A DNA stretch of 64,000 bases from Candidatus Omnitrophota bacterium (lineage in GTDB: Bacteria; Omnitrophota; Gorgyraeia; Zapsychrales; Zapsychraceae). The stretch lies in contig JANQMA010000012.1 of NCBI GenBank assembly GCA_028280285.1, positions 24,817 through 88,816 on the forward strand, in the 5' to 3' direction. The notes under the pieces are model-generated. The model ran no database searches, was not told the origin of the DNA, and worked only from the letters and a program-made list of their open reading frames with translations. This document shows positions 3,001-64,000 of this stretch, in pieces (position 1 is the stretch's first letter; every line of letters begins with the position of its first letter). The position numbers and the translations under genes were made by a program.

Positions 3001-6000
3001 ACGGTGATGTTGAGCATTTAGAAAATTACATTAAGCAAAGGGTAAAAGATGTCGGTATTAATGATTATTGGAAAGCTGTTTTAAAGGGCTACGCTATGGT
3101 CTACAGCGAGGCTGAAGATTATTTTGAAGAACGTGATTATGATAAGGTGCTTAAACGTTTGCTTATCGCGGCCCATTTTCGTCAGGATAAAGAGGCAATC
3201 AAGGATATACGCAACCGTATGATGCAACGTTATGGAGAAGCTAAGCATGTCCGTTTTTCCAGAGAATTTGTCCGAAAGTACTTGGACCATGCCAAACCGC
3301 CTTATGATATACAATGGACCACAGAACAGGCAGATTCCGCAAATCTAAAAAAAGAAGACGTGGATCAAGTTACATGGAGTGTTTGGCAGGAAATATTAGA
3401 TTTATTTGAACATGGACATTTTAAAGCACAACAATTAGACCGAAACTGGTATGAGGAAAAGTTGAAAAATAAAAAAGTGACTGTAAGTTTATTGAGAAAA
3501 ATCAAACGGGAAATAGATGAAGATATTAATTGGGTGGATGAAAAAAATAGAATTAAAGAAGGTCTGATTAAATATAAAGGAGATATTCATAAAATTAAAA
3601 TGGAGTTTTCTGATGTTTATATGCATAGCACACGAATTGCAAATTTTATTAAACAAAATGAGGAGTTATACGAATTATTTATGAAATATTGGAAGACTGC
3701 GATGTTAGAAGAGAAGAGCGCTTTTCTAAAAGCAATAGAAAAAACTATTCCAAAATATAGGCAATGGGATAAGTACGGGAGGCAGTATTATTTTAATGTA
3801 TCTGAAATTACCGCCAAATTTGAAAGATGGTTTGAAGATTGGGACACCCCGAAAACAAGACCGCTAAAGGATTTGGTAAAAAATGAGATAAAAGAAAGAA
3901 CCAACTGGTTAATAGCTATTCGTTATATAACTAAAACTATTAATGGGGAACAGATTGACTTTCAAGGTGAATACGGGATAGAAGGAACTTCAATAAAGGC
4001 ATTTGCACGTACTTTAATTAAACGAGATAAAGAATTAAGCGATAAGATTAAAGGCAAAATATTATGGTATATAGGACGTAGTGCTAGAGATGCGGCTTCT
4101 TTTTCGGATAAAGATTTGAAAAAATATGATATTAAAGTGTTAAAAGGCGGACAGGATCGTCTGGTAGATGACCCGTGGCCTAACTCTATTTTTTTCCATG
4201 AAGTGATTGTATACATTTATGATACAGAGGGCAGACTTCTTTTGACAAGAAATAATGATGCGACAGAACAGGACGATTTGGAAATTTTTATTAGGATTAA
4301 AGATAATTTACTTGATGACAACAAGTTGTCAGCTGAAGATATTGCAGAGAGGATACTTTACGAAGATTTTCGATTGCAAGCCAATAGGGATTCTTTTGTT
4401 CAATTAGATACTGAGTATCTAAAAGATCCAGTGAATAATAGACGTAATAGGTTTCATAAAAGAACGCAGCTTATTTATCCAGCTGCCTCCGATGAGTTGC
4501 GACGAATGCAAGAATATTATAATAAACGGAAGTTTGATGCGTTGTGGTTAATATCTGTGGATCATCTCGATGATTTTAAAAGGGACCATGGGGATGTTTT
4601 GGGCGGCTCTAAGGACATTTATGAGTCGGTTAAGTCCAAGGTATTCAAACAGATTGATAAAAATGTTTTTGAACCTAAACGTAAACAGCAGGAAGCAGAT
4701 GAATTAGAACAGTATAGACAAAAATTATTTCCTGAGTGGGAGATTCGAGAGTCAATAATTCAGGATATTAAGGCAAAAGTTGCCGTGTCATTAACTCCAG
4801 ATGACACTATAAAAGGAAAAGGGGCAAAAATAAAATCTTGGTTGCTTAATCGAATAAGAGAAGATGCTTCATTGTTGGATATTTTGAATCCTTTTTCGAA
4901 TAAAAATTTGGCAGAAATATGGGAAGTTAGTGAGCAATCAGTTAGAGCTATTATGAGTCAGTTGTTCCTAAGTTATCCATCTAAACGAGATTTAGGGTGG
5001 AAGAGGCATGCTTTTCCTGACCAAGTTTATACATTTGATGATTATGTAAAGAGCAAAGGAGATAATCGACAGTATGATTATTTAATTTCTTATTATGCAG
5101 AGAAATTTGGCGTCGAACCAATGTCTTATGAAGAAGCTAAAGCGGTTTATGAAAAAGCAGATGAAGAACAGAAAGAGGGAAATAAAAAGAGTAAGAAAAC
5201 TTTAGAAGAAATTGATCAGACACATCCGGCAATTAGAGAATACATTGCGCCACGCGTGGCCCGCCAATTGAGGCTAGGATCGGATGTAATCGAGCCCCTT
5301 GTGGATGCTTTGGTTTATGAGACCTATCATGGGGTATATGATCTTGATGAGATCTTCAAATTATTAAATATGGGATCACAGGATAGAAAATTTGTTAGGG
5401 CAAGGTGGTTTACGCAGTTACCAATTAATCCAGACGAAGTAAGAAGTAAGTTTATTAAAGAGGGTATTATTAAAGACGATGAGGCCGCGCTGATTTCACT
5501 TGAGGATTTTAAAGACTTATTACCTGAGTATTTTGTTGAAAATAGTGATAATCCTTATGAGCTTAACCGTAATTTTTATCATACTTACGGTGTAAGAAGT
5601 CTTAGGGGCCAATTTTATCAAGGTGTTTATCAGTTGCGTAAAACGTTAATAAATGAAAAGACGCATAGTTTATCGCGTTATTTAGAACTGAACGCTCCAG
5701 AGCAAAACTTTGAGGATTTTGGTTTTGATGAATCAGATATTTTAAGAATTAAATTAATAGGACGAAAATTAGGTTTATGGACATTTTATTTCGATCAAGA
5801 ATCTCTTGCTATCACTGAATTTAGAATTAGTGAAGACATGTATAATAAGCACATAGTCATGTATGAAGATATGGATCAGTTTATGATGCAGATAGCTAAA
5901 AGCATATTTAATGTTTTTTCTATAGATACAGCCGGAGATGAATTAATTCCTTTTGCGAATTTTGTTTATGAGACAAGCCCTATTGATCAATTGTGGTATG

Positions 6001-6569
6001 CTCTTGAAGAGGATGGGCATATTAGGGATAAATCCAATTGGAAATTTAACTTCGCTGCTTTAATTCTTGCGGTGAGAATAGCCATTAAGCATCGTATTAC
6101 GTCTGTAGAGGCGATTATAGAGTTACAAAAATATTTGGAGACCACTAATGAGGAAGACCTCGATGCAGATACACTTATTACATTAGGAACTTTAGGCTTA
6201 AGTGAGTATGCAAAAAATGTGAAATATGATGAAACAAATAGAAAAGTGTTAAAACAATTTTCTTATGCTGATGCTGCAGCGTTAGAAGAAGCACCTGGAG
6301 GGATTGATTTGACGCCGCAGGCGTGGGATTTGGATACAGTTGGTGCCGAGGGACAGAATTGCGCCGATGATGAGCCTGATTCAGGGTGTATCCGGCTCAA
6401 CTTTCCACCTGAGCAGATTGAGCAGATGAGAAACAGTATTGACGGCTTTGTGCCGGTGATTATCAACTTCCAACCTATCACCAACCTGCCGCTCTTTTTA
6501 GGGCTTAAAGATACCGAAATGCCACAACCAGTTGAAATAAAAGAAGAATTAGCTGTTTTACGGGAATGA
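1..6569 (+). CDS. Giant multidomain protein (C-terminal 2182 aa visible; 5' end lies upstream of the window) with an embedded HATPase_c/GHKL ATPase domain
   Basis: The frame is open from nt 3 to the stop at 6567-6569, so the first in-window TTG at 21 is not the true start. An internal segment has the N-box (DNLLKNAAQA), G1 (KDTGAGI), G2 (GHGLGLPF) and G3 (GKGAEFIITLP) motifs of histidine-kinase-type ATPases. The remainder has no family I can name from sequence. Confidence 0.7.
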   Translation, partial: LLAQDYLLKQLTASLMYPEGELGQKFWERIRQTDAGSLMLDARSEIQDLGSSIKDLTSMFNKVWIVPSKAVVYERDQVAYVGEVEFKVMLENDYLAYSEQRIADSSVQQSADNSLNANRYTPNAEIIREVIIPALEQEVNQGQHFAKLRQIQHSLILATWYKQKLKDSLLTQVYADQNKTKGIDIANPQEQIQGIYDQYTEAFKQGVYDYIKEEYDPATQQIIPRKYFSGGIDEAALKETISVQDLAAMTNKDDFMQGEPYGAQVRLDSAVLSKAKKQHIYDRLEYFIHDIKSKHAVVEVSIPRIAEDIIAGFDDEYQDFRDSYGNLISIRDGMHKTIEKRGDVKFISDRRYTNLEKTYKELLANLELIRSQSLKNLVNQKKIQLQSKQNIIRIKKMVDEIYFILGSVLNDELIIRSFMAEDLFPSSQNILPQQREGLKIYKKIKGDNFEVQGDKVYLKRVLDNLLKNAAQAIYDNDSKERNITITMRKMGRRYYEIRMKDTGAGIVNTRLSKIFNRGESSNGVGHGLGLPFVADVVKKHNGQIRVRSSLGKGAEFIITLPRKKEDIERNGADFKITYESMDAAGLSEAVEEDVSDSWMLTEDRERMAALERDLEKRTGDVEEKKEAVAQFRRFLKDVHEGQAVVDGEGRLIGQNMMALLHEDMTETHMQQWALAHYKDDVYANRLRALIILTSFFHDDVLGNTLTAFGQSLVFVNGVTEQQTKEFKQLSSKVNNSLSQLTYNRFSTVNLKDGFQKLQALIEEVHAVDLPQLRETFGEEFFNINKIFDEYFLKIENVFTEFNEQLSHLDPASLSDEDVQRILGMDDPVINGLQKHLDSPVRKATNEGLIVPKVWSGLDKQINIVQEIRGVIAEAIKDVQDPSGADLDPRKVIIQIPSSLEQLRYDNGKVFWRAVRDIDIDLFLPYGWQGVSITRGNKSVRLPAYLKERLVDYENKLGMSEGKKLDLNIIELTPSTFLEYIEDGKLKFHWAYLFLPQNLYYGDVEHLENYIKQRVKDVGINDYWKAVLKGYAMVYSEAEDYFEERDYDKVLKRLLIAAHFRQDKEAIKDIRNRMMQRYGEAKHVRFSREFVRKYLDHAKPPYDIQWTTEQADSANLKKEDVDQVTWSVWQEILDLFEHGHFKAQQLDRNWYEEKLKNKKVTVSLLRKIKREIDEDINWVDEKNRIKEGLIKYKGDIHKIKMEFSDVYMHSTRIANFIKQNEELYELFMKYWKTAMLEEKSAFLKAIEKTIPKYRQWDKYGRQYYFNVSEITAKFERWFEDWDTPKTRPLKDLVKNEIKERTNWLIAIRYITKTINGEQIDFQGEYGIEGTSIKAFARTLIKRDKELSDKIKGKILWYIGRSARDAASFSDKDLKKYDIKVLKGGQDRLVDDPWPNSIFFHEVIVYIYDTEGRLLLTRNNDATEQDDLEIFIRIKDNLLDDNKLSAEDIAERILYEDFRLQANRDSFVQLDTEYLKDPVNNRRNRFHKRTQLIYPAASDELRRMQEYYNKRKFDALWLISVDHLDDFKRDHGDVLGGSKDIYESVKSKVFKQIDKNVFEPKRKQQEADELEQYRQKLFPEWEIRESIIQDIKAKVAVSLTPDDTIKGKGAKIKSWLLNRIREDASLLDILNPFSNKNLAEIWEVSEQSVRAIMSQLFLSYPSKRDLGWKRHAFPDQVYTFDDYVKSKGDNRQYDYLISYYAEKFGVEPMSYEEAKAVYEKADEEQKEGNKKSKKTLEEIDQTHPAIREYIAPRVARQLRLGSDVIEPLVDALVYETYHGVYDLDEIFKLLNMGSQDRKFVRARWFTQLPINPDEVRSKFIKEGIIKDDEAALISLEDFKDLLPEYFVENSDNPYELNRNFYHTYGVRSLRGQFYQGVYQLRKTLINEKTHSLSRYLELNAPEQNFEDFGFDESDILRIKLIGRKLGLWTFYFDQESLAITEFRISEDMYNKHIVMYEDMDQFMMQIAKSIFNVFSIDTAGDELIPFANFVYETSPIDQLWYALEEDGHIRDKSNWKFNFAALILAVRIAIKHRITSVEAIIELQKYLETTNEEDLDADTLITLGTLGLSEYAKNVKYDETNRKVLKQFSYADAAALEEAPGGIDLTPQAWDLDTVGAEGQNCADDEPDSGCIRLNFPPEQIEQMRNSIDGFVPVIINFQPITNLPLFLGLKDTEMPQPVEIKEELAVLRE
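1340..1690 (+). other. HATPase_c (histidine kinase-like ATPase) domain inside the giant ORF
   Basis: The peptide runs GDKVYLKRVLDNLLKNAAQAI...MKDTGAGI...GVGHGLGLPFVADVVKKHNGQIRVRSSLGKGAEFIITLP. No recognisable H-box/DHp dimerisation segment lies immediately upstream. Confidence 0.6.
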
Positions 6570-19664: not shown

Positions 19665-20135
19665 ATGGTGAAGGCCACTGAGAAAAGACAGCGCAAGCGA
19701 TATGTACCTAAGAAAAATGTCAGGGTTGATTTCTATTATCCTGTTAAAACAAAGGTTGAGTTTGAACAGGATGAAAAATCTACAGAAGAACATTCAAAAC
19801 ATCAGGGAATGAGTAAAAATTTTAGCACTCATGGGATGTGTTTTAATTCGGATGTCTGCCTCAATCGAGGGGAACATTTAAACCTTGAAGTTTACATCCC
19901 GCTTCGGGAAGAGCCTATCTGTATGGAAGGGCGTGTCTGCTGGTCGGATGAGGAGCAAAAAGATTCATTTGATACAGGTGTTGAGATTCTTTCTGTTGAA
20001 GGAAAGAACGTGGATGATACGGTTTATCATGATGAAGTCTATGATGTCGATTGGAGTGAGGTTTTGGAATCTGTTTTAGGTCAATTTCGTATTTTGGCGC
20101 AGAAGGAGAGAGAAAAAAATGATGCTCAAAAATAA
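19665..20135 (+). CDS. PilZ domain protein (c-di-GMP-binding type)
   Basis: Carries the RxxxR motif (RQRKRYVPKK) and a (D/N)xSxxG-like motif (NFSTHGMCF), followed by a beta-barrel region. Confidence 0.55.
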   Translation: MVKATEKRQRKRYVPKKNVRVDFYYPVKTKVEFEQDEKSTEEHSKHQGMSKNFSTHGMCFNSDVCLNRGEHLNLEVYIPLREEPICMEGRVCWSDEEQKDSFDTGVEILSVEGKNVDDTVYHDEVYDVDWSEVLESVLGQFRILAQKEREKNDAQK

Positions 20136-37191: not shown

Positions 37192-38010
37192 TTATTTCAA
37201 CATCATCTCACTCCCACACTGATGGGCGATGTTTTCATCAATGGTGAATGTTTGCAGGCTATAGCCGGCCAAGAGCATGCGGCTGGCAATCAGGTTGATT
37301 ATGCGCGGGATGCCTCCTGTTAGACGGTGCACGGCATCTAGGGCATCATCTGTGAACTGCGGGAAGTCTTCATGTGTTTGGATTGAACGTGCGGTTTGAA
37401 TGCGGTGATTGATGTAGGCCTTTGTATTTTCAAGGTTAAAAGCCGACAGGTAAAATCTGAGGGTAATCCGTTGATCAATTTGGCGTAATGCTGTGCCTTG
37501 TAATTTATCAAATAAATCGGCCTGTCCACATAAAATAATTTGTATCAGCTTATCCTTTTCGGTTTCAAGGTTGGATAAAAGACGCAGCTGCTCAAGTTTC
37601 TGAGTATGCAGTTTTTGTGCTTCATCCACAATGAGAAGAATATTACGTCCTTTTTTGCTTTCATTCAGGAAAAAGTAGTTGAGGTGCTCGATGGCATCAT
37701 ATTTATTGTGACAGGGCTCCTCAATACCGAGTTTTTGCGCAATTGTCTTCAAGAGTTCAAGGTCTGACAAATCCGGGTTTAATATTAATATAGTTTCAGT
37801 TGAGTCATCGCACTTGTCTATCAACAGCTTGCATAAGGTTGTTTTGCCCGAACCCACATCACCGGTTAGAAGCATAAGCCCTTTGCGCTCTTTAATGCCG
37901 TAGCTTAGGTGAGAGAGGGCCTTTTCATGTTGTTCGCTGGGGTAGTAAAATTTTTTATCGGCGGTTTCTCTAAATGGATCTATTGTTAAATGGTAGAAGT
38001 CTGTGTACAT
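37192..38010 (-). CDS. ExeA/GspA-like AAA ATPase
   Basis: N-terminal DPF motif (FYHLTIDPF), Walker A LTGDVGSGKTTL and Walker B LLIVDEAQ. Size and order match COG3267 ExeA-type proteins. It lacks a peptidoglycan-binding domain. Confidence 0.65.
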   Translation of the reverse strand: MYTDFYHLTIDPFRETADKKFYYPSEQHEKALSHLSYGIKERKGLMLLTGDVGSGKTTLCKLLIDKCDDSTETILILNPDLSDLELLKTIAQKLGIEEPCHNKYDAIEHLNYFFLNESKKGRNILLIVDEAQKLHTQKLEQLRLLSNLETEKDKLIQIILCGQADLFDKLQGTALRQIDQRITLRFYLSAFNLENTKAYINHRIQTARSIQTHEDFPQFTDDALDAVHRLTGGIPRIINLIASRMLLAGYSLQTFTIDENIAHQCGSEMMLK

Positions 38011-53625: not shown

Positions 53626-54300
53626 ATGGCCGATAAAGAAAGCGCACAAGATAAGCTAGCTAAGATGATACAGGCATCTGCCAAAAGTGCGGATGCACCT
53701 GCAGATGATCCCGCGGCGGCATTAGCAGCTGCAACAGGAGCCCAACCTGTTGGAGCGGGAGCAAAATCAAAAAAGGGCGCCAAAAAGAATCCTGCTGAGC
53801 TTATTAAACTATTGAACGTCGTTTTGATTGTGGCTGTTGTGGGCTGTTTGGGGCTTTTATTTAATCAGTTTGCGGTAGGCAATAGCTTGATCAATTCAAG
53901 CAGCGAATTTGGGGCGGACATCACGGTTAAAAAAGGACTACGTCCTAATTTAGCCCTACCAACGGTTCAGAGACTTTCGTACTATCTTGCCGATATTAAT
54001 AGCAGAAATATTTTTCAGCCGTTTCAAAGAGAGGTTGAAGAAACGGTGACAAAGGTTTCCGATACAACGCGGGCAGTCGCCCGTAAAACACGCGATTTTC
54101 GTCTTGTTGGGGTGGCTTGGTTTGACTCGGTTGATTCCGCCTCAGCAATGATTGAAGATACAAATAAAAAAGTCACTTATTTTCTTCGCAGAGGCGAAAA
54201 AATAGGGGATGTTTCTGTAAAAACCATTTATGCCGACGGTGTAGAGCTAGGCTATCAAAATGAGGAGATAATAATACAATATGACAAATCTCAACTATAA
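53626..54300 (+). CDS. Membrane-anchored protein, possible secretin-associated PilP/GspC-like component
   Basis: An Ala/Pro/Lys-rich low-complexity N-terminus, one TM helix (LLNVVLIVAVVGCLGLLF) and a periplasmic beta-rich domain. It overlaps the secretin gene start by 20 nt. The functional assignment rests on context only. Confidence 0.3.
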   Translation: MADKESAQDKLAKMIQASAKSADAPADDPAAALAAATGAQPVGAGAKSKKGAKKNPAELIKLLNVVLIVAVVGCLGLLFNQFAVGNSLINSSSEFGADITVKKGLRPNLALPTVQRLSYYLADINSRNIFQPFQREVEETVTKVSDTTRAVARKTRDFRLVGVAWFDSVDSASAMIEDTNKKVTYFLRRGEKIGDVSVKTIYADGVELGYQNEEIIIQYDKSQL

Positions 54301-55864
54301 AATCAAAATGGTTGTTGCAATGGTTGTGTTTTTTGGTTTTGCAACGGCACTCTTGGCGCCTACAGTGTCGCAGGCCAGATCGCCTAAACCCATTGTGATA
54401 AAAAGTATGAACGAAGCAATCTCCCGGCGTATGCAAAGAGAGATCACATTGGATGTTCGCGATATGAATATCGTTGATGTTATCAAATTTCTTGCGCTGA
54501 AAGGAGATTTCAACGTTGTTATCAGTCCAACCGTAGAAGGCCGTGTAACGGTTCTTTTGAATAATGTCAGCATTGAAGATGCGATGGATATTGTCATTAT
54601 TTCTAACCGTTTGGCGTATAAGGTTGAGAATAATATTGTCCAGGTTTTTACAGATGCTGAGTATGAAGCCATTTACGGCAAACGGTTCTCTGATAAAACT
54701 CAGGTGCATATTGTGCGTTTACAATATTCCAAACCAAGCTATGTGTTAGCGGCGCTCGACAATATCAAAAGTAATGTCGGTAAAATCATTATTGACGAGG
54801 ATACGGGTTCTGTTGTGATGATTGATACGGCCGAAGCCATTGGGTTAATGAAAAATGCCCTTAAAGAGATTGAAAGGCCCTTGGAAACAATTACCTATAC
54901 GCTGCAGTATGCCGAAGCCGATATTGTTGCAGAGAAGCTGCGTGCACGGATTGATGCCAAAGCGGTTGGGTCTATCACGCCGGATGAGCGAAGTAATAGT
55001 TTAATTGTGCGTGCTTATCCTGAACGGACAAAAGAGGTGCTTGATATCATTAAAAAGCTTGATACCGAGACTAAAGAAGTCATGGTTGATGCGCGTATTC
55101 TGCAAATTGTTCTTAAGCCGGAATATGATGTTGGTGTTGACTGGGAAGTTGATTTTGATGGTTCTGATAATGCGTTGCGTTTTAGTAATCTCTATTTGGA
55201 TACAGCGAATATATCAAGTACGGATAACCTTGCGTCTACTTTTGGATCGATTGCTGTCGGGGATATCAGCGCAGATGACTTTACAGTCAAAATTCGTTCC
55301 CTTGAGCAAGTCAGTGATACGAAAATTTTATCTAATCCTAAAATTCTTGTAACCAATAATGAAGAAGCTAAAATTCATATTGGCGACACAGTTCCTTATA
55401 TTATCTCGACGACATCAGGGACGGGGGATAATGCGATTACCAGTGAAGATGTGCGTTTTGTCGATGTGGGACTTAAGCTTAATGTCACCCCTAAAATAAA
55501 CGATGAGGGCATGGTGACTATGCGTCTACGACCGGAAATTTCGACAGTTGTTGCTCAAATTACTTCTGAAGGCGGCGGAATTCCGCAGGTTAACAAAACT
55601 GAAGTTGAAACAACTGTTATGGTGCAGGACGGCAATACAATTATCATGGGTGGCCTTAAAAAAGATGATAAGGTGCATGTGAAAAAAGGTTTTCCTGTCC
55701 TCATGGATTTGCCGTGGTTTGGCCCGGTTTTTGGCCGCACAGATGATGAAATCACAGAAACAGAAATCGTTATCTTTATCACACCAACGGTTGTATCAGG
55801 TTATGATACATACGTTGATTATGAAGGAGATATAAAACCGTTTAAAGAGTATAGCATTAAATAA
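54281..55864 (+). CDS. Secretin (type II secretion / type IV pilus GspD/PilQ family)
   Basis: Signal peptide, N-terminal secretin_N-type domains, and the conserved C-terminal secretin domain (GGIPQVNKTEVETTVMVQDGNTIIMGGL...VPVLMDLPWFGPVFGRTDDEITETEIVIFITP). Confidence 0.8.
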   Translation: MTNLNYKIKMVVAMVVFFGFATALLAPTVSQARSPKPIVIKSMNEAISRRMQREITLDVRDMNIVDVIKFLALKGDFNVVISPTVEGRVTVLLNNVSIEDAMDIVIISNRLAYKVENNIVQVFTDAEYEAIYGKRFSDKTQVHIVRLQYSKPSYVLAALDNIKSNVGKIIIDEDTGSVVMIDTAEAIGLMKNALKEIERPLETITYTLQYAEADIVAEKLRARIDAKAVGSITPDERSNSLIVRAYPERTKEVLDIIKKLDTETKEVMVDARILQIVLKPEYDVGVDWEVDFDGSDNALRFSNLYLDTANISSTDNLASTFGSIAVGDISADDFTVKIRSLEQVSDTKILSNPKILVTNNEEAKIHIGDTVPYIISTTSGTGDNAITSEDVRFVDVGLKLNVTPKINDEGMVTMRLRPEISTVVAQITSEGGGIPQVNKTEVETTVMVQDGNTIIMGGLKKDDKVHVKKGFPVLMDLPWFGPVFGRTDDEITETEIVIFITPTVVSGYDTYVDYEGDIKPFKEYSIK

Positions 55865-55889: not shown

Positions 55890-56375
55890 ATGAAATATCT
55901 ATCAGTCAAGCTGACAGCTGTTTTGGCTGTTCTGACGTTTTTGGCCTTTTTTACCGTCGATGTATTTGCCACTCCGGAATCGGTACGTAAGGAGACGCAA
56001 ACATTAAATATTCTAACGCGTATTGATGCCTTTGCTGAAACGGATCCTGTGCTGCGTAGTGATGCGGCCAAGGCGCATTATAACATGGGCAATATTTATT
56101 ATCGCAAAGGGGAATATGAAATTGCGGCCCGTGAGTACTATCAAGCATCAACTTTAATGCCAGATGATCCTGATGTGCACTATAATTTGGCATTTGTGAG
56201 CTCTCAGCACCTATTTGACTATAGAACGGCACTCAAGCATTACAAAATGTACTTATATCTCAAGCCTGGCGCGCGCGATGCCAAGTTTGTTAAAAGAAAG
56301 ATCAATGAAGCGGAGCTTTACATAAGATCTTTGGTTGATTCACCATTGGAAAAATCGATAGAGCGCAGCAGATAA
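55890..56375 (+). CDS. TPR-repeat protein (PilF/PilW-like secretin partner), secreted
   Basis: Signal peptide plus 3 TPR units (AHYNMGNIYYRKGEYEIAAREYYQASTLMPDDPDVHYNLAFV). It lies immediately downstream of the secretin. Confidence 0.5.
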   Translation: MKYLSVKLTAVLAVLTFLAFFTVDVFATPESVRKETQTLNILTRIDAFAETDPVLRSDAAKAHYNMGNIYYRKGEYEIAAREYYQASTLMPDDPDVHYNLAFVSSQHLFDYRTALKHYKMYLYLKPGARDAKFVKRKINEAELYIRSLVDSPLEKSIERSR

Positions 56376-56470: not shown

Positions 56471-56499
56471 TTGTAGACGAATTGTGCGATGCATATAAT
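56471..56499 (+). promoter_or_regulatory. Near-consensus sigma70 promoter upstream of the first FGE-domain gene
   Basis: TTGTAG (56471-56476), a 17-nt spacer, TATAAT (56494-56499), about 50 nt upstream of ATG 56552. Confidence 0.45.
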
Positions 56500-56551: not shown

Positions 56552-58138
56552 ATGAATATAAATAAAAGGTTTGTTCTTTTACTAATTATCCTCGTCGAGA
56601 TATTTATTCTTACCGTTTCTAATGTTCACGCCAATAACTTATTCTTATCAAATGTCAGCCTAGAATCAAGAGATCCAGCCAGTGATACCGTGGTTGTTGA
56701 GTTTGATTTATCCTGGAATAACGCATGGTATACAAAAATTAATCATGATGCTGTGTGGCTTACTTTTCGTTTAGACAATGGGGCAAGTCCAACCGATAAA
56801 CGTCTTTGTGCAATTACATTCAGTGGTGTTAATCCTGTTGGTTCATCGACCGGTACAAATACAGCGATCGAAGTGTATGTGCCCAATGATAAGCTTGGGG
56901 TCTTTGTCCGTTTGGCAGACTTTGGTAGCGAAGCACAGGTCAGTTCTCAAAATCTTCAAGTCACAGTTGATTATGCCAGCTGCGGTTTTACCGAAAACGA
57001 TCAAGTTGAAGCAACGGTTTTTGGTCTAGAAATGGTTTTTGTGCCACAAGGGGCCTTTTATGCGGGTGATTTTGACACAAGTGCTGCAGCCTTTAACCAA
57101 GGATCATCGGATACGGATGCTTGGTATATTTCCAACAGCGCAGCTATCAGCGTGGCCAACCCTTCATCCAACGGGTATCGTTATGTATCTAATAACAACA
57201 CGAACGAGGCGGCAACCGGCGCTTCATTTACCATCGATTCGGATTTTCCGAACGGCTACGATGCTTTTTATGCCATGAAGTACGAGATCACAGAAGGACA
57301 ATGGGTTGAGTTTGTTAATTCACTACCGACGGATGCTGCCAGATCAAACCGTGATTTGACCAACGGCAGCCATAAAAATTCGGATGCGGTTAAATCACGC
57401 AATACAGTCAGCTGTTCTGGAACACCCACAGTTTGTTCAACTTCTCGTCCTTACCGGGCAGCGACATATTTAACCTGGATGGATTTACTAGCATTTTTGG
57501 ATTGGGCGGCCTTAAGGCCAATGACGGAACTTGAATTTGAAAAAATGGCACGTGGTGCCGTTTTACCTGTTGCTGGTGAATTTGCCTGGGGTACGACGGA
57601 TATTACAGCTGCTGCGGCGATCAGTGTCGGCGATGAAGATGGCACCGAGACAATCACAACGGCCAGCGCCAATGCCAATTACAATAACACTGTTTTTACC
57701 GGAGGTGATGCGGACAACGGCGGCGAGCATACACAGGGAGCGCTTCGTTCCGGGATCTTTGCCGGTTCTGTGTCGAACAAAGTATCTGCCGGAGCAAGCT
57801 ATTACGGTGTTATGGAGCTTTCGGGTAATGTGATTGAACGTGCGGTGACCGTTGGCAATGCGAGTGGAAGAAGTTTTACAGGAACACACGGTGACGGTGT
57901 TTTAACGACAACATCATCGTTTGAAGGCAATGCCACCAATTCTGATTGGCCCGGCATTGATGCCACACCGGCCAATGGAGTGACCGGTGCTGATGGTTCC
58001 GGTTTTAGAGGCGGGGCTTTTAGTGAGGTATCAAGCAATCGACTAAGGGTTTCCGATCGCTATGATGCGGCAAATGCTTCGACAGTTGCGTTTAACGATG
58101 CAGGCGGCCGAGGCGTACGCACTTATGACGGAAACTAA
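56552..58138 (+). CDS. Secreted FGE (formylglycine-generating enzyme/SUMF1)-domain protein with a novel N-terminal domain, paralog 1
   Basis: Signal peptide and an ~150-aa N-terminal beta-rich domain. The FGE-domain hallmarks are LEMVFVPQGAFYAGD, RPYRAATYLTWMDLLAFLDWAALRPMTELEFEKMARG and GFRGGAF. The C-terminal Cys pair of catalytic FGEs is not evident. Confidence 0.55.
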   Translation: MNINKRFVLLLIILVEIFILTVSNVHANNLFLSNVSLESRDPASDTVVVEFDLSWNNAWYTKINHDAVWLTFRLDNGASPTDKRLCAITFSGVNPVGSSTGTNTAIEVYVPNDKLGVFVRLADFGSEAQVSSQNLQVTVDYASCGFTENDQVEATVFGLEMVFVPQGAFYAGDFDTSAAAFNQGSSDTDAWYISNSAAISVANPSSNGYRYVSNNNTNEAATGASFTIDSDFPNGYDAFYAMKYEITEGQWVEFVNSLPTDAARSNRDLTNGSHKNSDAVKSRNTVSCSGTPTVCSTSRPYRAATYLTWMDLLAFLDWAALRPMTELEFEKMARGAVLPVAGEFAWGTTDITAAAAISVGDEDGTETITTASANANYNNTVFTGGDADNGGEHTQGALRSGIFAGSVSNKVSAGASYYGVMELSGNVIERAVTVGNASGRSFTGTHGDGVLTTTSSFEGNATNSDWPGIDATPANGVTGADGSGFRGGAFSEVSSNRLRVSDRYDAANASTVAFNDAGGRGVRTYDGN

Positions 58139-58157
58139 TACAAAACAGTTGGGGGAG

Positions 58158-59813
58158 ATGAAAAAAGAATATAACATGCCAAGCAGGTCTCTTTTTATTT
58201 TAACAGCAGTGGTAGCGCTTTCCTTCTTTACTGCGCAATCTGTTTTTGCCAATAATCTTTCTATCGAAAGTTTTTCTGTTTATTCGACGAGCGAAGCAGC
58301 CAACACGATTACCTATGCGGCTGATATAACATGGGAAAACAGCTGGCGGACGACAACGAATTATGATGCTGTTTGGGTTTTCCTTAAATATTCAACCGAT
58401 GCAGGCATGACATGGAATCACGCCAGTATGGCCAATAATGGGGTGAATCCAAATGGATTCAGTGCGCCTACCGGGTTTGAGATTGTTGTTCCGGATGACG
58501 AAAAAGGATTCTTTTTACAGAGAACGGATTTAAGTTCGGGTAATGTTTCTGCCGAGGATGTAAAGTTTATTTGGGATTACGGGCAAGATGGATTGACAGA
58601 TGATCAAGCCATGGCAGCTAATACGATCAATAAAGTTTTTGGAATCGAAATGGTTTATATCCCTGAGGGACCTTTTTATGCCGGTGATGATAACAGCTCG
58701 TCGGAATACCGATTTAAACAAGGCTCCTCTGATAATGACCCTTGGTATATTCAGAGTGAAAATGCGATTACTACGACGAACTCTACCGCCGATGGGTTCT
58801 ATTATCAAAGTTCTTCCGCCTCTTCGGAAAGTGCCAGCGGGGCGGTATTTATTATTCAAACTTCTTTTCCAAAAGGCTACAACGACCATTATCAAATGAA
58901 GTATGAGTTGACCGAAGGGCAGTGGGTTGACTTTTTTAACACACTCTCGAATGCGCAAAAAACGAATAGAGATATTACAGCGTCGACGAATGGCGGTAAA
59001 AATTCAGATAGTGTCGTGACACGCAATACCATTGCCTGGGATTCATCCAGTCCGGCATCCGATGCCACAACCGACCGCGCTGATCGTCCGGTGACCTATG
59101 TGTCCTGGCCGGATGTGTTAGCGTACGCGGATTGGGCCGCCTTAAGACCGATTACCGAACTTGAGTATGAGAAAGCTGCACGTGGAATCGATATTACTCC
59201 TCTATCCGATGAACTCGCTTGGAGCAAGACAACATATAATCAAGCCGAAGCCAGTGAGATATTTCCTGATGCCGATGAAGACGGCGAAGAGCAAATTTTT
59301 GACGGAGCTGCCAATTTAAATCGTAATTCCCTTGGTTGGTCGTCCGGTGATGGACGCGCAGGCGGTAGTGCGGCCGGTCAGGCAGGTCCTTTACGTGCAG
59401 GTATTTTTGCAGAAAGTTCAACTAACCGCACGACGAGCGGATCAGGATATTATGGATCAAAAGAATTGTCCGGTAATTTATCTGAGATGGTGGTTACAGT
59501 CGGTAACGCGTCGGGACGTGGTTTTCTCGGAACACATGGAGACGGCAGCCTCTCGACCATCAGCAGTTATGAAGGTAATGCAACAAATTCTGATTGGCCG
59601 GGGATTAATGCCACAGATAGTGCACGTGGTGTGACAGGCACATCAGGTTCTGGATATCGTGGAGGAAATTTTAATTCGTCGAATGTCAGACATTTTCAAG
59701 TTTCAAACCGAACAAACGCAGCCAAAGACGCAGACGGAGCCAGCTATAGTCAGCGTTATGATGCTTCATTTGGTATGTTTGGTTCAGGCCGTTTAGGAAG
59801 GACGGCCCCGTAG
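58158..59813 (+). CDS. Secreted FGE-domain protein, paralog 2
   Basis: Same architecture (IEMVYIPEGPFYAGD; RPVTYVSWPDVLAYADWAALRPITELEYEKAARG; GYRGGNF). The mature protein is essentially Cys-free. The start is ATG 58158 or 58176. Confidence 0.55.
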   Translation: MKKEYNMPSRSLFILTAVVALSFFTAQSVFANNLSIESFSVYSTSEAANTITYAADITWENSWRTTTNYDAVWVFLKYSTDAGMTWNHASMANNGVNPNGFSAPTGFEIVVPDDEKGFFLQRTDLSSGNVSAEDVKFIWDYGQDGLTDDQAMAANTINKVFGIEMVYIPEGPFYAGDDNSSSEYRFKQGSSDNDPWYIQSENAITTTNSTADGFYYQSSSASSESASGAVFIIQTSFPKGYNDHYQMKYELTEGQWVDFFNTLSNAQKTNRDITASTNGGKNSDSVVTRNTIAWDSSSPASDATTDRADRPVTYVSWPDVLAYADWAALRPITELEYEKAARGIDITPLSDELAWSKTTYNQAEASEIFPDADEDGEEQIFDGAANLNRNSLGWSSGDGRAGGSAAGQAGPLRAGIFAESSTNRTTSGSGYYGSKELSGNLSEMVVTVGNASGRGFLGTHGDGSLSTISSYEGNATNSDWPGINATDSARGVTGTSGSGYRGGNFNSSNVRHFQVSNRTNAAKDADGASYSQRYDASFGMFGSGRLGRTAP

Positions 59814-59834: not shown

Positions 59835-62800
59835 ATGAGCAACCATAGAACAAAAGAAAATTTATTTCACGCGTGTTTGACGTGGTTTGTGATATTTACA
59901 TTCCTGCTCGCGCAAACGCCTTCGACTGTCTATGCACAGTTTACAGGAGGTAGTTTCGGCGGGGATGGCACGTCATCCCTCGGTGAAGGTATATATAAAG
60001 GTGGATCCGAAGAAGGCTCTTCAAGTAGTTCAACGTCAAGCACCGCTTCATTAGCTCATGGTGAGGCGACGCAACTTGTATTCACACAAAGTCCTTCCAC
60101 AAGCAAACACTTGCACAAATTCGAACGCCAACCGATCATAGAAGTTCGAGATGCAAATGGTAATGTGATTACAACAGATAATACTACTGCCGTTTCTTTG
60201 GATCTATTTAATAACCCTGGTGCCGCCAAACTTGGCGGCACCACGACGGTGACAGTATCCTCCGGGGTTGCTGTTTTCACCGATCTTTCCGTTAATAATC
60301 CTGCCGAAATGTACACGCTGATCGCATCCGCACCAGGACTGACATCCGCGTTTTCAGATCCGTTTGATATTTTAACCGGTACAGGTCCACGGGCCATGGC
60401 ACTCTGGGATGAAACAGGGGGCGGCGGCTTCACTATTTATGTATGGTTAGAGTCAGACAATGACCGTGAAGAATTATCTGATAATGGAGGTAGTCCTGAC
60501 GACGCAGCGACCATTACGATCCTTGATGCGCAAGGCAACACGGAGTTGTCACCAGCTTTAACACTTGATACCACCAATGATTGGTTTAAATCAGCGGACC
60601 GTGTTTGGACGTTGACCGAAGCGGATGAAAAAGATGATTACTTTGCCAAGGTTCAAATTACACAAGATCCGGGCGGAGCTAATACAACCACCGATGCTAT
60701 CGTTCCTCTTGAAGTCATCAAACCGATTTTAGCGGAAATAGCCGATGTTAATTGGGATCTGCTTGCCGCTATTAAAGCCAAGACCGATACAATTAATTGG
60801 GATGATATTACAGAAATTAAGGCCAAAACCGATACGATTAATTGGGATGATATTAGTGTCTTGAGAACAGATGTAACAACAATTAAAGGTTATCTTGATG
60901 ATGTGAATTGGTCTGATGTCGAGAGGATGAGCGAAGCCGGTATTAATTGGGAAAATATTATGGTCATGACCAGTTTTGAAATTAACTGGACTGATATTGA
61001 CCGATTAAGTAAGGAAGGTGTGAATTGGACGGAAATAGCTGATTTGGCTGCGCGCGATATTAATTGGGATGACATTGAAGTTTTCAGTCAGGCGGGGGTT
61101 AATTGGGACGATTTAGTTGCCTTGAGTGAAGCGGGGGTTAATTGGGATGATCTTGCTGTCATGACGGCACAAGGAGTGAATTGGGCAGATATTAAAGTGC
61201 TGCATGATAAAGGAATGAACTGGGATGCCCTTGTTTTTCTAGGTACGGCCGATGTGAATTGGGATGATATTTCAGCGATGAGTAATGCCGGCGTTATTTG
61301 GAGTGAATATATCAATTGGTCTGACCTTGCTGTCTTATCTAATGCCGGTGTTAACTGGGATGATCTTGATGAGATGAGTGACGCCGGTATCAATTGGGAT
61401 GATTTAACCGTGATGAGTGAAGCGGGGGTTAATTGGGATGATTTACAGGAGTTATCAACGGCAGGTATTAATTGGTCTGACCTGACGGTAATGACTGAAG
61501 CCGGCATTAATTGGGCCGATATTGAAGTTTTATCGACGCAAGGTGTTAACTGGACGGATATTGGTGTTATGACAGCCCAAGGTATTAATTGGGCCGATAT
61601 TGATGTGCTTTCAAAAGCGGGTGTTAATTGGTCAGGCATTCAAGACTTAAGTACCGCCGGAGTGAATTGGGATGGGATTCAACATTTAAGTGTATCTAGT
61701 ATTAACTGGGATGATATTGAACAGTTAAGTAAAAAAGGTGTCAACTGGGATGACTTACAACAAATGACCACCGCCGGTGTTAACTGGAATGACATTGAAC
61801 AGTTGAGTACGACAGGTATCAATTGGGATGGCATCCAGCATTTAAGCACCTCAGGTGTTAACTGGTCAGATATTGGTGTTATGACAAAGGCCGGGGTGAA
61901 TTGGGCTGATATTGATGTATTGAGTAGGACGGGAGTGAACTGGAATGATATTCAGGTTATGACGGTCGCGGGCATAAACTGGGATGATATCGGACAAATG
62001 ACAACAGCGGGTGTTAACTGGGATGATATTGAGCAATTAAGTAAGACGGGTGTGAACTGGGATGACTTACAACAAATGACCACCGCCGGTGTGAACTGGG
62101 ATGATATTGAACAGTTAAGTAAGGCCGGTGTGAACTGGGATGATATCCAAGTCATGTCGACAACAGGAGTCAATTGGAGCGGCATTCAGCACCTCAGTGT
62201 TTCCGGTGTTAACTGGTCGGATATCGGGGTCATGTCGGAGGCTGGTGTCAACTGGGATGGCATCCAGCATTTAAGTGTGTCTGGTGTGAATTGGTCAGAT
62301 ATCGGGGCGATGACAACAGCCGGCGTCAATTGGGATGACATTGAACAGTTAACAAAAAAAGGTGTGAACTGGGATGATATTCAGGTTATGACGGTCGCGG
62401 GCATAAACTGGGATGATATTGGACAAATGACAATCGCTGGTGTGAACTGGGATGATATTGAACAGTTGAGTAAAAAAGGTGTCAACTGGGATGGGATTCA
62501 AGATTTAAGTACTGCCGGCGTGAACTGGGATGACTTACAACAAATGACCACCGCCGGTGTGAACTGGACCGATATTGAAGTTTTATCAAAGACGGGTGTT
62601 AACTGGGATGATCTGCAAGTGATGACGGTCGCCGGCGTTAACTGGTCGGATATCGGGGTTATGTCAAAAGCCGGTGTTAACTGGGATGGCATCCAGCATT
62701 TAAGTACATCCGGTGTTAATTGGGATGATTTACAAGCGTTATCCACCGCCGGTGTGAACTGGGATGATATTGAACAGTTGAGTAAAAAAGGTGTCAACTG

Positions 62801-64000
62801 GGATGACTTACAACAAATGACCACCGCCGGTGTGAATTGGGATGATATCGGTGCTCTGACGACAGCTGGTGTAAACTGGGATGATATTAAGGCATTAAGT
62901 GAGACGGGTGTGAATTGGGATGACTTACAACAAATGACAACAGCGGGTGTGAATTGGTCGGATATCGGCGTCTTATCAACGACCGGTGTGAACTGGGATG
63001 ATATTAAGGTATTAAGTGAAACAGGCGTCAACTGGGATGGCATTCAGCACCTCAGTGTTTCCGGTGTCAACTGGTCGGATATCGGGGTGATGTCAACGGC
63101 CGGTGTTAACTGGAATGATTTACAACAAATGACCACCGCCGGTGTGAATTGGGATGATATCAAGGTATTAAGTGAAAACGGTGTTAATTGGGATGGTTTA
63201 CAAGACCTTAGTACCTCGGGTGTGAATTGGGCGGATCTTGGTGTAATTTCAGCAACGGGAGTGAATTGGGATGATATTAAGGTATTAAGTGAAACAGGTG
63301 TCAACTGGAATGGTATTCAACACCTCAGTGTTTCCGGCGTTAACTGGTCGGATGTCGGAGTGATGTCGACGGCCGGAGTGAACTGGGATGATATTGAACA
63401 GTTGAGTAAGACAGGCATTAACTGGGATGATATTGAACAGTTAAGTAAGACAGGCATTAACTGGGATGATCTGCAAGCTATGACAACAGCCGGTGTGAAC
63501 TGGGATGATATTGAGCAGTTAAGTAAGGCCGGTGTGAACTGGGATGATATTGAGCAATTAAGTAAGACGGGTGTGAACTGGGATGACTTACAACAAATGA
63601 CCACCGCCGGTGTGAATTGGTCGGATATTGGGGTGATGTCGGTGGCCGGTGTGAACTGGGATGATATTAAGGTCATGAGTGAAGGCGGAGTGAATTGGAG
63701 CGGCATTCAGCACCTCAGTGTTTCCGGTGTTAACTGGTCGGATATCGGGGTGATGTCGACGGCCGGAGTGAATTGGGATGATATTGAACAGTTAAGTAAA
63801 ACAGGTATTAACTGGGATGATATTGAACAATTAAGTAAGACGGGTATTAATTGGGATGATTTTCAGGTGATGACCACCGCTGGAGTGAATTGGACGGATA
63901 TTGGCGTCTTATCAAAAGCTGGTGTTAACTGGACAGATATTCAAGTCTTGTCGGAGGCAGGCGTTAACTGGTCGGATATTGATGTGATGTCAAAAGCCGG
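59835..64000 (+). CDS. Giant secreted tandem-repeat protein (>1388 aa, 3' end beyond the window): signal peptide, Ser/Gly-rich linker, Ig-like domain, then >80 copies of a 13-aa GVNW[DS]DIxxLS unit
   Basis: The frame is open from ATG 59835 to the window end. It is absent from the ORF track because no stop falls inside the window. The signal peptide is MSNHRTKENLFHACLTWFVIFTFLLAQTPSTVYAQ. The repeat consensus is x-x-G-V-N-W-[DS]-[DG]-I-x-x-[LM]-[ST]. Confidence 0.75.
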   Translation, partial: MSNHRTKENLFHACLTWFVIFTFLLAQTPSTVYAQFTGGSFGGDGTSSLGEGIYKGGSEEGSSSSSTSSTASLAHGEATQLVFTQSPSTSKHLHKFERQPIIEVRDANGNVITTDNTTAVSLDLFNNPGAAKLGGTTTVTVSSGVAVFTDLSVNNPAEMYTLIASAPGLTSAFSDPFDILTGTGPRAMALWDETGGGGFTIYVWLESDNDREELSDNGGSPDDAATITILDAQGNTELSPALTLDTTNDWFKSADRVWTLTEADEKDDYFAKVQITQDPGGANTTTDAIVPLEVIKPILAEIADVNWDLLAAIKAKTDTINWDDITEIKAKTDTINWDDISVLRTDVTTIKGYLDDVNWSDVERMSEAGINWENIMVMTSFEINWTDIDRLSKEGVNWTEIADLAARDINWDDIEVFSQAGVNWDDLVALSEAGVNWDDLAVMTAQGVNWADIKVLHDKGMNWDALVFLGTADVNWDDISAMSNAGVIWSEYINWSDLAVLSNAGVNWDDLDEMSDAGINWDDLTVMSEAGVNWDDLQELSTAGINWSDLTVMTEAGINWADIEVLSTQGVNWTDIGVMTAQGINWADIDVLSKAGVNWSGIQDLSTAGVNWDGIQHLSVSSINWDDIEQLSKKGVNWDDLQQMTTAGVNWNDIEQLSTTGINWDGIQHLSTSGVNWSDIGVMTKAGVNWADIDVLSRTGVNWNDIQVMTVAGINWDDIGQMTTAGVNWDDIEQLSKTGVNWDDLQQMTTAGVNWDDIEQLSKAGVNWDDIQVMSTTGVNWSGIQHLSVSGVNWSDIGVMSEAGVNWDGIQHLSVSGVNWSDIGAMTTAGVNWDDIEQLTKKGVNWDDIQVMTVAGINWDDIGQMTIAGVNWDDIEQLSKKGVNWDGIQDLSTAGVNWDDLQQMTTAGVNWTDIEVLSKTGVNWDDLQVMTVAGVNWSDIGVMSKAGVNWDGIQHLSTSGVNWDDLQALSTAGVNWDDIEQLSKKGVNWDDLQQMTTAGVNWDDIGALTTAGVNWDDIKALSETGVNWDDLQQMTTAGVNWSDIGVLSTTGVNWDDIKVLSETGVNWDGIQHLSVSGVNWSDIGVMSTAGVNWNDLQQMTTAGVNWDDIKVLSENGVNWDGLQDLSTSGVNWADLGVISATGVNWDDIKVLSETGVNWNGIQHLSVSGVNWSDVGVMSTAGVNWDDIEQLSKTGINWDDIEQLSKTGINWDDLQAMTTAGVNWDDIEQLSKAGVNWDDIEQLSKTGVNWDDLQQMTTAGVNWSDIGVMSVAGVNWDDIKVMSEGGVNWSGIQHLSVSGVNWSDIGVMSTAGVNWDDIEQLSKTGINWDDIEQLSKTGINWDDFQVMTTAGVNWTDIGVLSKAGVNWTDIQVLSEAGVNWSDIDVMSKA
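60740..64000 (+). repeat. Coding tandem repeat array with 39-nt period (about 83 units in the window)
   Basis: The GGTGTGAACTGGGATGATATTGAACAGTTAAGTAAG-type unit repeats head-to-tail. Higher-order 78/117-nt blocks recur almost identically. Confidence 0.85.

Follow-up and report, generated by a model that had tools for sequence, protein, structure and literature searches.

Tandem FGE-fold proteins lacking the catalytic cysteine pair as possible lectin-fold binding subunits of a giant Omnitrophota protein

In a 64,000-nucleotide stretch of a Candidatus Omnitrophota genome (contig JANQMA010000012.1, positions 24,817 to 88,816 of the forward strand; hereafter the window), two tandem genes encode secreted paralogues with the fold of the formylglycine-generating enzymes (FGE), directly upstream of a giant open reading frame (ORF). 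Omnitrophota are ultra-small bacteria, probably predatory or epibiotic, in which giant genes are conspicuous and their function is opaque. The two genes, here called FGE-A (56552..58138, + strand, 528 aa) and FGE-B (58158..59813, + strand, 551 aa), have lost the catalytic cysteine pair of the enzymes, and the giant protein opens with two short motifs of the form [FY]xGG, a type of motif that recurs in the downstream neighbours of related genes in several phyla. From these sequence features, our preferred reading, which we hold tentatively and at somewhat short of an even chance, is that the pair are non-enzymatic lectin-fold binding subunits that dock on the N-terminal motifs of the giant protein and would serve as the ligand-binding "heads" of a giant adhesin.

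An earlier reading of the window (the sequence-only reading) had described the two genes as tandem paralogues encoding secreted FGE-domain proteins. This observation was confirmed, and the interpretation that accompanied it is partly supported. Both ORFs are present, the products are 44% identical over their full length (BLASTP E 2e-132), and the motifs that had been listed for them were recovered. The closest database matches of the pair are proteins from Omnitrophota metagenome-assembled genomes (MAGs); a look-up by exact sequence gave no identical record, and gene context was taken from orthologues. The FGE-B ORF was listed from 58062; its start is most likely at 58158, because the N-termini of orthologues fit this position and the FGE-A stop lies at 58138. 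Both proteins have Sec-type signal peptides (56552-56632 in FGE-A and 58158-58250 in FGE-B), with cleavage between VHA and NNL in FGE-A and between VFA and NNL in FGE-B. A junction of this signal-peptidase-I type, with A before and NN[LI] after the cleavage site and with no lipobox cysteine, was found in every family member inspected, across phyla. The mature proteins consist of an N-terminal beta-sandwich (56633 to about 57025 in FGE-A, 58251-58643 in FGE-B) followed by a domain with the FGE/C-type-lectin fold (57026-58135 and 58644-59810, respectively).

Assignment to the FGE fold draws on both sequence and a structure model. Each protein matches PF03781 (FGE-sulfatase) above the gathering score of 23.3, with 32.1 bits for FGE-A and 49.5 bits for FGE-B, although coverage of the profile is partial (positions 35-187 and 40-141 of 255). 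A profile of the family aligned with the FGEs of human (SUMF1), T. curvata, and S. coelicolor in three collinear blocks (HMMER E 2e-8), namely MVxxPxGxF, RPVxxVSW...LRPxTELExEKxxRG, and RGG...R...GxR, and these enzymes are the best structural as well as sequence matches. An earlier AlphaFold2 run on 52 close orthologues modelled the FGE domain poorly (pLDDT 62.9), and its Foldseek search was empty at E <= 0.001. With a 140-sequence alignment that took in both paralogue clades and a Bacteroidota-type clade, the model reached a pLDDT of 91.3 and a pTM of 0.94, and Foldseek returned FGE, EgtB, and OvsA at probability 1.00 (including 6s07, 6muj, and 2q17; best E 2e-6). TM-scores to these structures were only near 0.5 because of large insertions of about 45 aa and about 40 aa. 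The N-terminal beta-sandwich (mature residues 1 to about 130) was confidently modelled and packs against the FGE-like domain. It was unmatched in Pfam and NCBIfam, and Foldseek gave only weak matches to Ig-like adhesin and pilin domains. Two stretches are conserved across the family, a patch of the N-terminal domain with the pattern NN...NSW...NxDAxW and the segment at residues 401-465 in mature numbering. Invariant residues of the patch are N1, N2, N30, S31, W32, N37, D39, and W42.

Catalytic FGEs carry two copper-binding cysteines after an RGGS[YWF] motif and recognise CxPxR in unfolded sulfatases. FGE-B contains no cysteine at all, which also holds for 32/120 of its orthologues, and FGE-A contains four. 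The FGE-A cysteines (residues 86/144 and 288/295) are conserved only in the FGE-A clade, and none is at a catalytic position. In the 140-sequence alignment, no cysteine column is common to all three clades, and none follows the RGG motif. In the third block, the family sequence yrGGsfan...sserlrvsdRt lies opposite RGGSYLChdsYCNRYRVAARS of the FGEs, with residues of Asn/Ser type facing the cysteine pair; both copper-binding cysteines have therefore been replaced. The paired cysteines of the FGE-A clade, which FGE-B lacks, lie at window positions 56807-56821, 56978-56992, and 57407-57445, with one pair in the N-terminal beta-sandwich and the other in the VSCSGTPTVCSTS loop of the FGE-like domain. 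These are probably structural disulfides that distinguish the paralogues.

The substrate side of an FGE is missing as well. A scan of window ORFs that took in most of the large ones gave no sulfatase domain, and no protein with [ST]xCx[PA]xR is encoded in the 64 kb; the only CxAxR strings are in one tetratricopeptide repeat (TPR) protein and one antisense ORF. We give practically no credence to the idea that FGE-A and FGE-B are ordinary formylglycine-generating enzymes that mature a sulfatase. In its favour are the PF03781 matches and the annotation of some homologues as [quoted passage not shown]. The idea is contradicted by the large insertions, the extra N-terminal domain, and the merely partial profile match, and an ordinary maturase is excluded because the cysteine pair is absent and neither a sulfatase nor an [ST]xCx[PA]xR protein is found nearby. 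The sequence-only reading had suspected the cysteine loss, and alignment with the FGEs bore it out, with Asn/Ser-type residues at both positions and without a sulfatase or other Cx(P/A)xR substrate. Membership of the sulfoxide synthases EgtB, OvoA, and SenA is not supported either. The EgtB model of NCBIfam scored 22.4 bits against a cut-off of 360 and that of SenA 19.6 against 420, with only about 45 residues matched. The N-terminal domain in our model is a beta-sandwich, unlike the helical DinB domain of these enzymes, which in EgtB and OvoA supplies the iron ligands (a His triad).

What the FGE-like genes are paired with offers a better indication of their role. The giant ORF begins at 59835 on the + strand and runs off the window at 64000, so that at least 1,388 aa are visible, in which a signal peptide and both [FY]xGG motifs precede a Ser-rich linker, a domain of about 100 aa, and repeats. 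Motif 1, QFTGGSFGGDG (59937..59969, + strand), immediately follows the predicted cleavage site between VYA and Q, and motif 2, IYKGGSEEG (59991..60017, + strand), stands 18 residues past motif 1. The N-terminal portion of about 300 aa is conserved in Omnitrophota (E 1e-20 to 1e-106), and the conserved domain of about 100 aa looks Ig-like by eye only; the first 422 aa (59835-61100) gave no Pfam match. The repeats (window 60750-64000) have a 39-nt (13-aa) unit, GVNWxDIxxLSxx, and a higher-order arrangement with periods of 78, 117, 273, and about 390-430 nt.

Such a motif is much commoner next to an FGE-like gene than elsewhere in the loci. A [FYW]xGG motif occurs within the first 100 aa of 58/75 immediate downstream neighbours, compared with 34/744 other genes of the same loci (Fisher p 5e-49). 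The pairing was seen in Omnitrophota, Bacteroidota, Verrucomicrobiota, Lentisphaeria, Calditrichia, and Cloacimonadota, as well as on two IMG/VR contigs. From Omnitrophota to Bacteroidota, the genes of a cysteine-less FGE-fold protein and of a protein that carries [FY]xGG at its N-terminus make up a conserved unit of two. Outside Omnitrophota, there is no secretin, and the secreted protein encoded downstream on the same strand opens with Q[FY]xGGxGDG[FY] after its signal peptide. [quoted passage not shown]

Several features of the partners were observed alongside the motif. In nine loci (L043, L046, L047, L053, L072, L083, L085, L087, and L088), a domain of about 100 aa follows just past the motif or motifs, with the consensus LPVEL.SF....V.L.W.T..E.N...F.VERS.DG..F......G.G.....Y...D......YYRLKQ.D.DG, and the smallest partners contain little beyond the motif, this domain, and the C-terminal T9SS domain. 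In eight Flavobacteriaceae loci (L055, L056, L061, L065, L066, L071, L073, and L086), the pair is flanked by a divergently oriented TPR-histidine kinase (PF06580) and a LytTR response regulator, an arrangement that suggests a regulated operon. A second gene for a small protein with a T9SS C-terminal domain follows the FGE-like/motif-protein pair in these loci.

In Omnitrophota, motif number in the giant protein goes with the copy number of the FGE-like genes. In twenty loci, a pair of genes accompanies a pair of motifs at a spacing of 18-19 aa (among these, L018 was scored as having three through an overlapping regular-expression match), five loci have one gene and one motif, and two loci have four genes with two motifs and a degenerate third. 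The Spearman correlation was 0.80, a statistic that ignores kinship. In a rough neighbour-joining tree, single-copy loci fell in three separate places, and L020 showed an independent duplication together with two motifs. Because the single-copy loci are scattered and L020 was duplicated independently, the copy-number match is not a single inherited event.

Further indications of a binding function come from homologues that are targets of diversity-generating retroelements (DGRs). In three Omnitrophota loci (L030:5517-9176, L031:336-3830, and L040:2464-4937), an FGE-like gene is followed by a DGR. The accessory protein Avd (NF033474) was recognised in all three with 105.8 bits against a cut-off of 80, and a reverse transcriptase (RT) was found in L030 and L031. 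Over the 136 nt that end the FGE-like gene, identity to the template repeat is 87.5%. The mismatches fall almost exclusively at template adenines (16 of them), and the variable region corresponds to the C-terminal 45 aa of the homologue. In L030, a 2,433-aa motif-bearing protein (...FTGGSYDGYG) is encoded after the DGR cassette. The window itself contains no RT or Avd homologue, and no separate template-repeat scan of it was made. Nevertheless, the equivalent C-terminal segments can be traced in the window proteins: in FGE-A, it is 58001..58135 (+ strand), which aligned with the L030 variable region and is a putative ligand-binding face, and in FGE-B, it is 59652..59810 (+ strand), with a 10-aa insertion relative to FGE-A. 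In orthologues of FGE-A, the DGR-equivalent columns have an entropy of 2.04 against 0.51 in the other columns (p 3e-6), and in orthologues of FGE-B, 1.22 against 0.59 (p 0.002). As these genes have no DGR and the columns are still hypervariable, the C-terminal face evolves fast even without one.

Proteins of this general class have been characterised. TvpA of Treponema denticola is a binding protein with a C-type-lectin fold of the FGE subclass that has no FGE activity and is a "category b" DGR target (PMC5758913). As in DGR proteins of the TvpA type, the lectin domain of the window family lies within an FGE-sulfatase domain, with the C-terminal 40-45 residues as the ligand-binding or variable segment. 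Unlike those proteins, the window genes have no RT or Avd nearby, and no sequence-level match between the window family and TvpA was seen in PDB searches. The DGR survey (PMC5758913) describes neither the N-terminal beta-sandwich of the family nor a downstream partner with motifs. Non-catalytic binding proteins with the FGE/C-type-lectin fold are already known as a class; what is new here, and most informative beyond the sequence-only reading, are the [FY]xGG motifs of the partners, their numerical agreement with the FGE-like genes, and the homologues targeted by DGRs.

If the preferred reading is correct, each FGE-like subunit would dock stoichiometrically on one motif of the giant protein, and FGE-A and FGE-B would each occupy one of the two. 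Docking may proceed through a conserved surface, either the N-terminal patch NN...NSW...NxDAxW or the segment at mature residues 401-465. This would leave the fast-evolving C-terminal face available to an external target, for example, the surface of a host or prey. For passage across the outer membrane, the complex would use the co-encoded secretin in Omnitrophota and, in Bacteroidota and relatives, the T9SS C-terminal domain of the partner. A wider version of this proposal, in which we place less confidence and regard as possible but doubtful, is a docking system shared by several phyla: [FY]xGG(x)xDG peptides on surface scaffolds would each recruit one separately encoded FGE/lectin-fold head, the complex would be exported folded, through a dedicated secretin or carried along by the T9SS, and the C-terminal faces would evolve fast, in some lineages by means of DGRs, to recognise host or prey surfaces. 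The scaffolds would be the giant ORFs in Omnitrophota and T9SS cargo in Bacteroidota and relatives. A functional analogy can be drawn with the cohesin–dockerin interaction of cellulosomes, where short repeated docking elements of a surface scaffold each recruit one separately encoded module. The two systems are not homologous; docking would here involve peptide motifs of about 10 residues in place of a folded domain, and binding is inferred.

A number of observations weigh against docking and display. The adjacency and the copy-number match are correlative, with few independent lineages (about three single-copy and several duplications) and no phylogenetic correction. The four-gene loci show only two clear motifs, and in Bacteroidota one gene accompanies up to 10 motif repeats, so that a 1:1 relation is not universal. 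About a quarter of the non-Omnitrophota loci have no motif-bearing neighbour. Four Omnitrophota loci (L019, L025, L028, and L030) are without a secretin, and an inner-membrane platform of the GspE/F or PilB/C type, with its ATPase and pseudopilins, was not found among the window ORFs scanned. The choice of the motif-binding surface is a guess. The FGE-like proteins themselves carry no T9SS C-terminal domain or other known outer-membrane export signal, and surface exposure would therefore require piggy-back export.

The same facts can be read in other ways. The FGE-like proteins might be cysteine-independent enzymes that act in the periplasm on the not yet exported neighbouring protein and modify its [FY]xGG(x)xDG motifs post-translationally, comparable to the recognition of CxPxR by true FGE. 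The FGE fold has a peptide-binding groove, the family has many invariant charged residues, and the genes are strictly adjacent to a protein with a short, repeated, and conserved motif right after its signal peptide; a single gene serving up to 10 repeats, as in Bacteroidota, would suit a catalyst. However, the cysteine pair and the DinB domain are both absent, and no alternative metal site, such as a His cluster, was recognised in the conserved columns, of which no systematic search was made. A catalyst would have no need for a gene number that matches the motif number, and the Gly-rich core of the motif offers no obvious conserved residue for modification save the aromatic one. Hypervariation of the C-terminal face by DGRs is, moreover, typical of binding proteins and not of enzymes, and we regard a modifying activity as unlikely. 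To a similar extent, we doubt that the proteins are periplasmic holdases or targeting chaperones, which would bind the motifs transiently to keep the repeat-rich cargo export-competent or to retain and anchor its N-terminus in the periplasm, without being displayed. For such a function, the evidence from adjacency and motifs equals that for displayed subunits, the FGE-like proteins carry no recognisable outer-membrane export signal, and the motifs are at the extreme N-terminus, which leaves Sec before the rest of the protein. Yet the DGR diversification and the variable C-terminal face imply a ligand that is variable and probably external, and the small Bacteroidota partners, with a motif, a beta-sandwich, and a T9SS domain, make better sense as anchors for a displayed subunit than as cargo needing a 500-aa chaperone.

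A structural role in the secretin machine, that is, as periplasmic subunits of a scaffold like the PorK/GldK ring without specific contact with the N-terminus of the giant protein, appears about equally unlikely to us. It would agree with the conserved order of secretin, TPR, and FGE-like genes in most Omnitrophota loci, and, to judge from their signal peptides, the proteins reach at least the periplasm. There is also precedent, since PorK, GldK, and GldJ have an FGE fold without the cysteine pair and are able to form periplasmic rings or tracks (PMC12421860, PMC12635249). Outside Omnitrophota, however, the family has no secretin at all and yet keeps its motif-bearing neighbour, and even within the phylum, L019 and L030 retain the FGE-like and giant genes without a secretin. 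A ring subunit would also hardly be expected to have a C-terminal face that evolves fast or to be a target of DGRs.

The sequence-only reading had compared the pair with GldJ, GldK, and PorK as parts of a surface machine. A non-catalytic role in a surface structure is reasonable, given the conserved location beside a secretin and a giant surface protein; the kinship was not supported. Neither window protein matched the GldJ/GldK models of NCBIfam (including short forms) at E <= 0.01, and homologues from Bacteroidota, Lentisphaeria, and Calditrichia gave no match at E <= 0.001. No PorK or GldK structure was among the top 50 Foldseek matches. An identification of the Bacteroidota homologues as SprC or as GldJ/K-like was also tested; NCBIfam gave nothing, and a link to SprC did not emerge and is not required. 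In PorK, the FGE fold has lost the catalytic cysteine pair and the substrate groove has turned into a protein-docking surface (PMC12421860), a precedent for the docking proposed here. The window family shares the loss of the pair, with the reuse for protein contacts inferred here from gene context alone. PorK, GldK, and GldJ are lipoproteins, while the window proteins are signal peptidase I substrates with a different domain architecture, and in Omnitrophota, the FGE-like genes adjoin a secretin and not a T9SS. GldK and PorK function through a cysteine that forms a disulfide with outer-membrane partners of the PorG or SprF/PorP type (PMC12635249), a link that is impossible for the cysteine-free FGE-B.

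The N-terminal domain, which the sequence-only reading had called novel, is real and unmatched in the domain libraries. It is not a local novelty, however, as it defines a family spread over several phyla. A search with this domain retrieved 1,575 clusters at 50% identity (E <= 1e-3), which sets the size of the family at no fewer than this number of clusters, and the domain is nearly always N-terminal in proteins of about 480-620 aa. Full-length homologues with 34-39% identity, including the N-terminal domain, were found beyond Omnitrophota in Bacteroidota, Verrucomicrobiota, Lentisphaeria, Calditrichia, Ignavibacteria, and Cloacimonadota. The Bacteroidota carriers include cultured and uncultured members (Kordia, Winogradskyella, Polaribacter, Algibacter, Neolewinella, and Jiulongibacter). 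Source names of the non-Omnitrophota homologues are only of the type "SUMF1/EgtB/PvdO family nonheme iron enzyme". Judged from these sequences, the family is large, unnamed, undescribed, and present in multiple phyla. The family is not one of phages, as a scan of viral contigs in IMG/VR gave only two relatives of full length. Three proteins of 1,000-1,470 aa (P0375, P0405, and P0466) have two or three matches to the N-terminal domain each, some of them internal (around residue 640), and fused or multi-unit versions may thus exist. No fusion of an FGE-like protein with a motif-bearing protein was found among the long representatives, only insertions and unrelated C-terminal extensions.

These findings matter for annotation as well as for biology. 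The label "hypothetical SUMF1-like" is misleading in thousands of database entries, for which there is now a testable hypothesis on how giant adhesins acquire target-binding heads. If true, the docking system would be the first molecular handle on how the giant proteins of Omnitrophota engage their targets, and the presence of the module in cultured marine Bacteroidota gives experimental access without the need to culture Omnitrophota. In the literature that we examined on Omnitrophota giant genes and their flanking secretion genes, FGE, formylglycine, and sulfatase (and, in part of it, SUMF) are not mentioned.

The genes upstream of the pair place it in a conserved cassette. The sequence-only reading had correctly located the FGE-like genes between a secretin/TPR pair and the giant repeat ORF, a position that is conserved in most Omnitrophota loci. 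The first cassette gene in the window (53626..54300, + strand) encodes a GspC/PilP-like (T2SSC-like) protein with weak matches to PF11356 and NF041515, below the curated cut-offs, and an orthologue lies at the equivalent position in most Omnitrophota loci. It is followed by a secretin gene (54281..55864, + strand) whose product has an N0/STN domain, two Secretin_N domains, and a Secretin domain (PF00263 E 1.1e-46, PF03958 E 2.6e-21). This secretin cannot be assigned to GspD, PilQ, or MshL, as all three models score below cut-off; of about 34 Omnitrophota loci, about 27-30 have a secretin gene upstream of the FGE-like ones. The next gene, before FGE-A, encodes a small secreted TPR protein (55890..56375, + strand; TPR_11 E 1.2e-13), pilotin- or PilW-like by position and conserved at this place across Omnitrophota loci. 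The core of the cassette in most of these loci is, accordingly, a T2SSC-like gene, a secretin gene, a TPR gene, one to four FGE-like genes, and a giant ORF, and the window has the same arrangement. Together, the N-domain secretin, the GspC/PilP-like protein, and the pilotin-like TPR protein amount to an outer-membrane module of the kind found in the type II secretion system (T2SS) or type IV pilus. Giant ORFs across Omnitrophota have been reported to be preceded, just upstream, by conserved secretion genes, gspD among them (West-Roberts et al. 2023, bioRxiv 10.1101/2023.11.21.568195). Compared with the T2SS-like loci of that study, the window cassette has the outer-membrane module only and no GspE or GspF.

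Further upstream, the gene order in Omnitrophota is an S41 peptidase, a family 2 glycosyltransferase (GT2), DUF2304, in some cases a methyltransferase, a second GT2, and in some cases an ExeA-like AAA_22 gene, followed by the secretion and FGE-like part. The sole ATPase of secretion type seen in the window is an ExeA/GspA-like AAA_22 protein (37192-38010, - strand). The ExeA-like gene lies directly upstream of the T2SSC-like gene in L003 and L006, and in the window, it is 16 kb away on the opposite strand. The full cassette of the Omnitrophota type was also observed in 13 loci from MAGs labelled "uncultured Planctomycetales/Planctomycetia bacterium" (L008, L010, L012-L015, L017, L018, L020-L022, L029, and L034), which suggests that these bins are Omnitrophota or mislabelled.

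For transcription of the pair, the sequence-only reading had proposed a near-consensus promoter at 56471. This did not hold up: the -35 hexamer fits at 3/6 bases, the site falls below the threshold of the scanner, and the region holds no excess of promoter-like sites (19, compared with 16.3 +/- 4.0 in shuffles). Shortly before the giant ORF, the final codons of FGE-B coincide with a terminator-like hairpin (59787..59807, + strand) of eight pairs that leads into a T-rich tail. It was recognised by pattern only, and sites of this kind show no enrichment (9, compared with 6.8 +/- 2.4 in shuffles). By its position, this hairpin could attenuate read-through into the giant gene, which would then be transcribed less than the FGE-like genes.

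The remaining genes of the window are of the housekeeping type, including those for glycine cleavage, a lipoate ligase, helicases, and TPR proteins. At the 5' edge, an ORF of 2,182 aa (window 21-6569) encodes a GHKL/HATPase_c domain at residues 447-557 and no further Pfam domain; it starts at most 21 nt from the edge and may represent the 3' portion of a further very long gene. A gene with a PilZ domain is located at 19665-20135.

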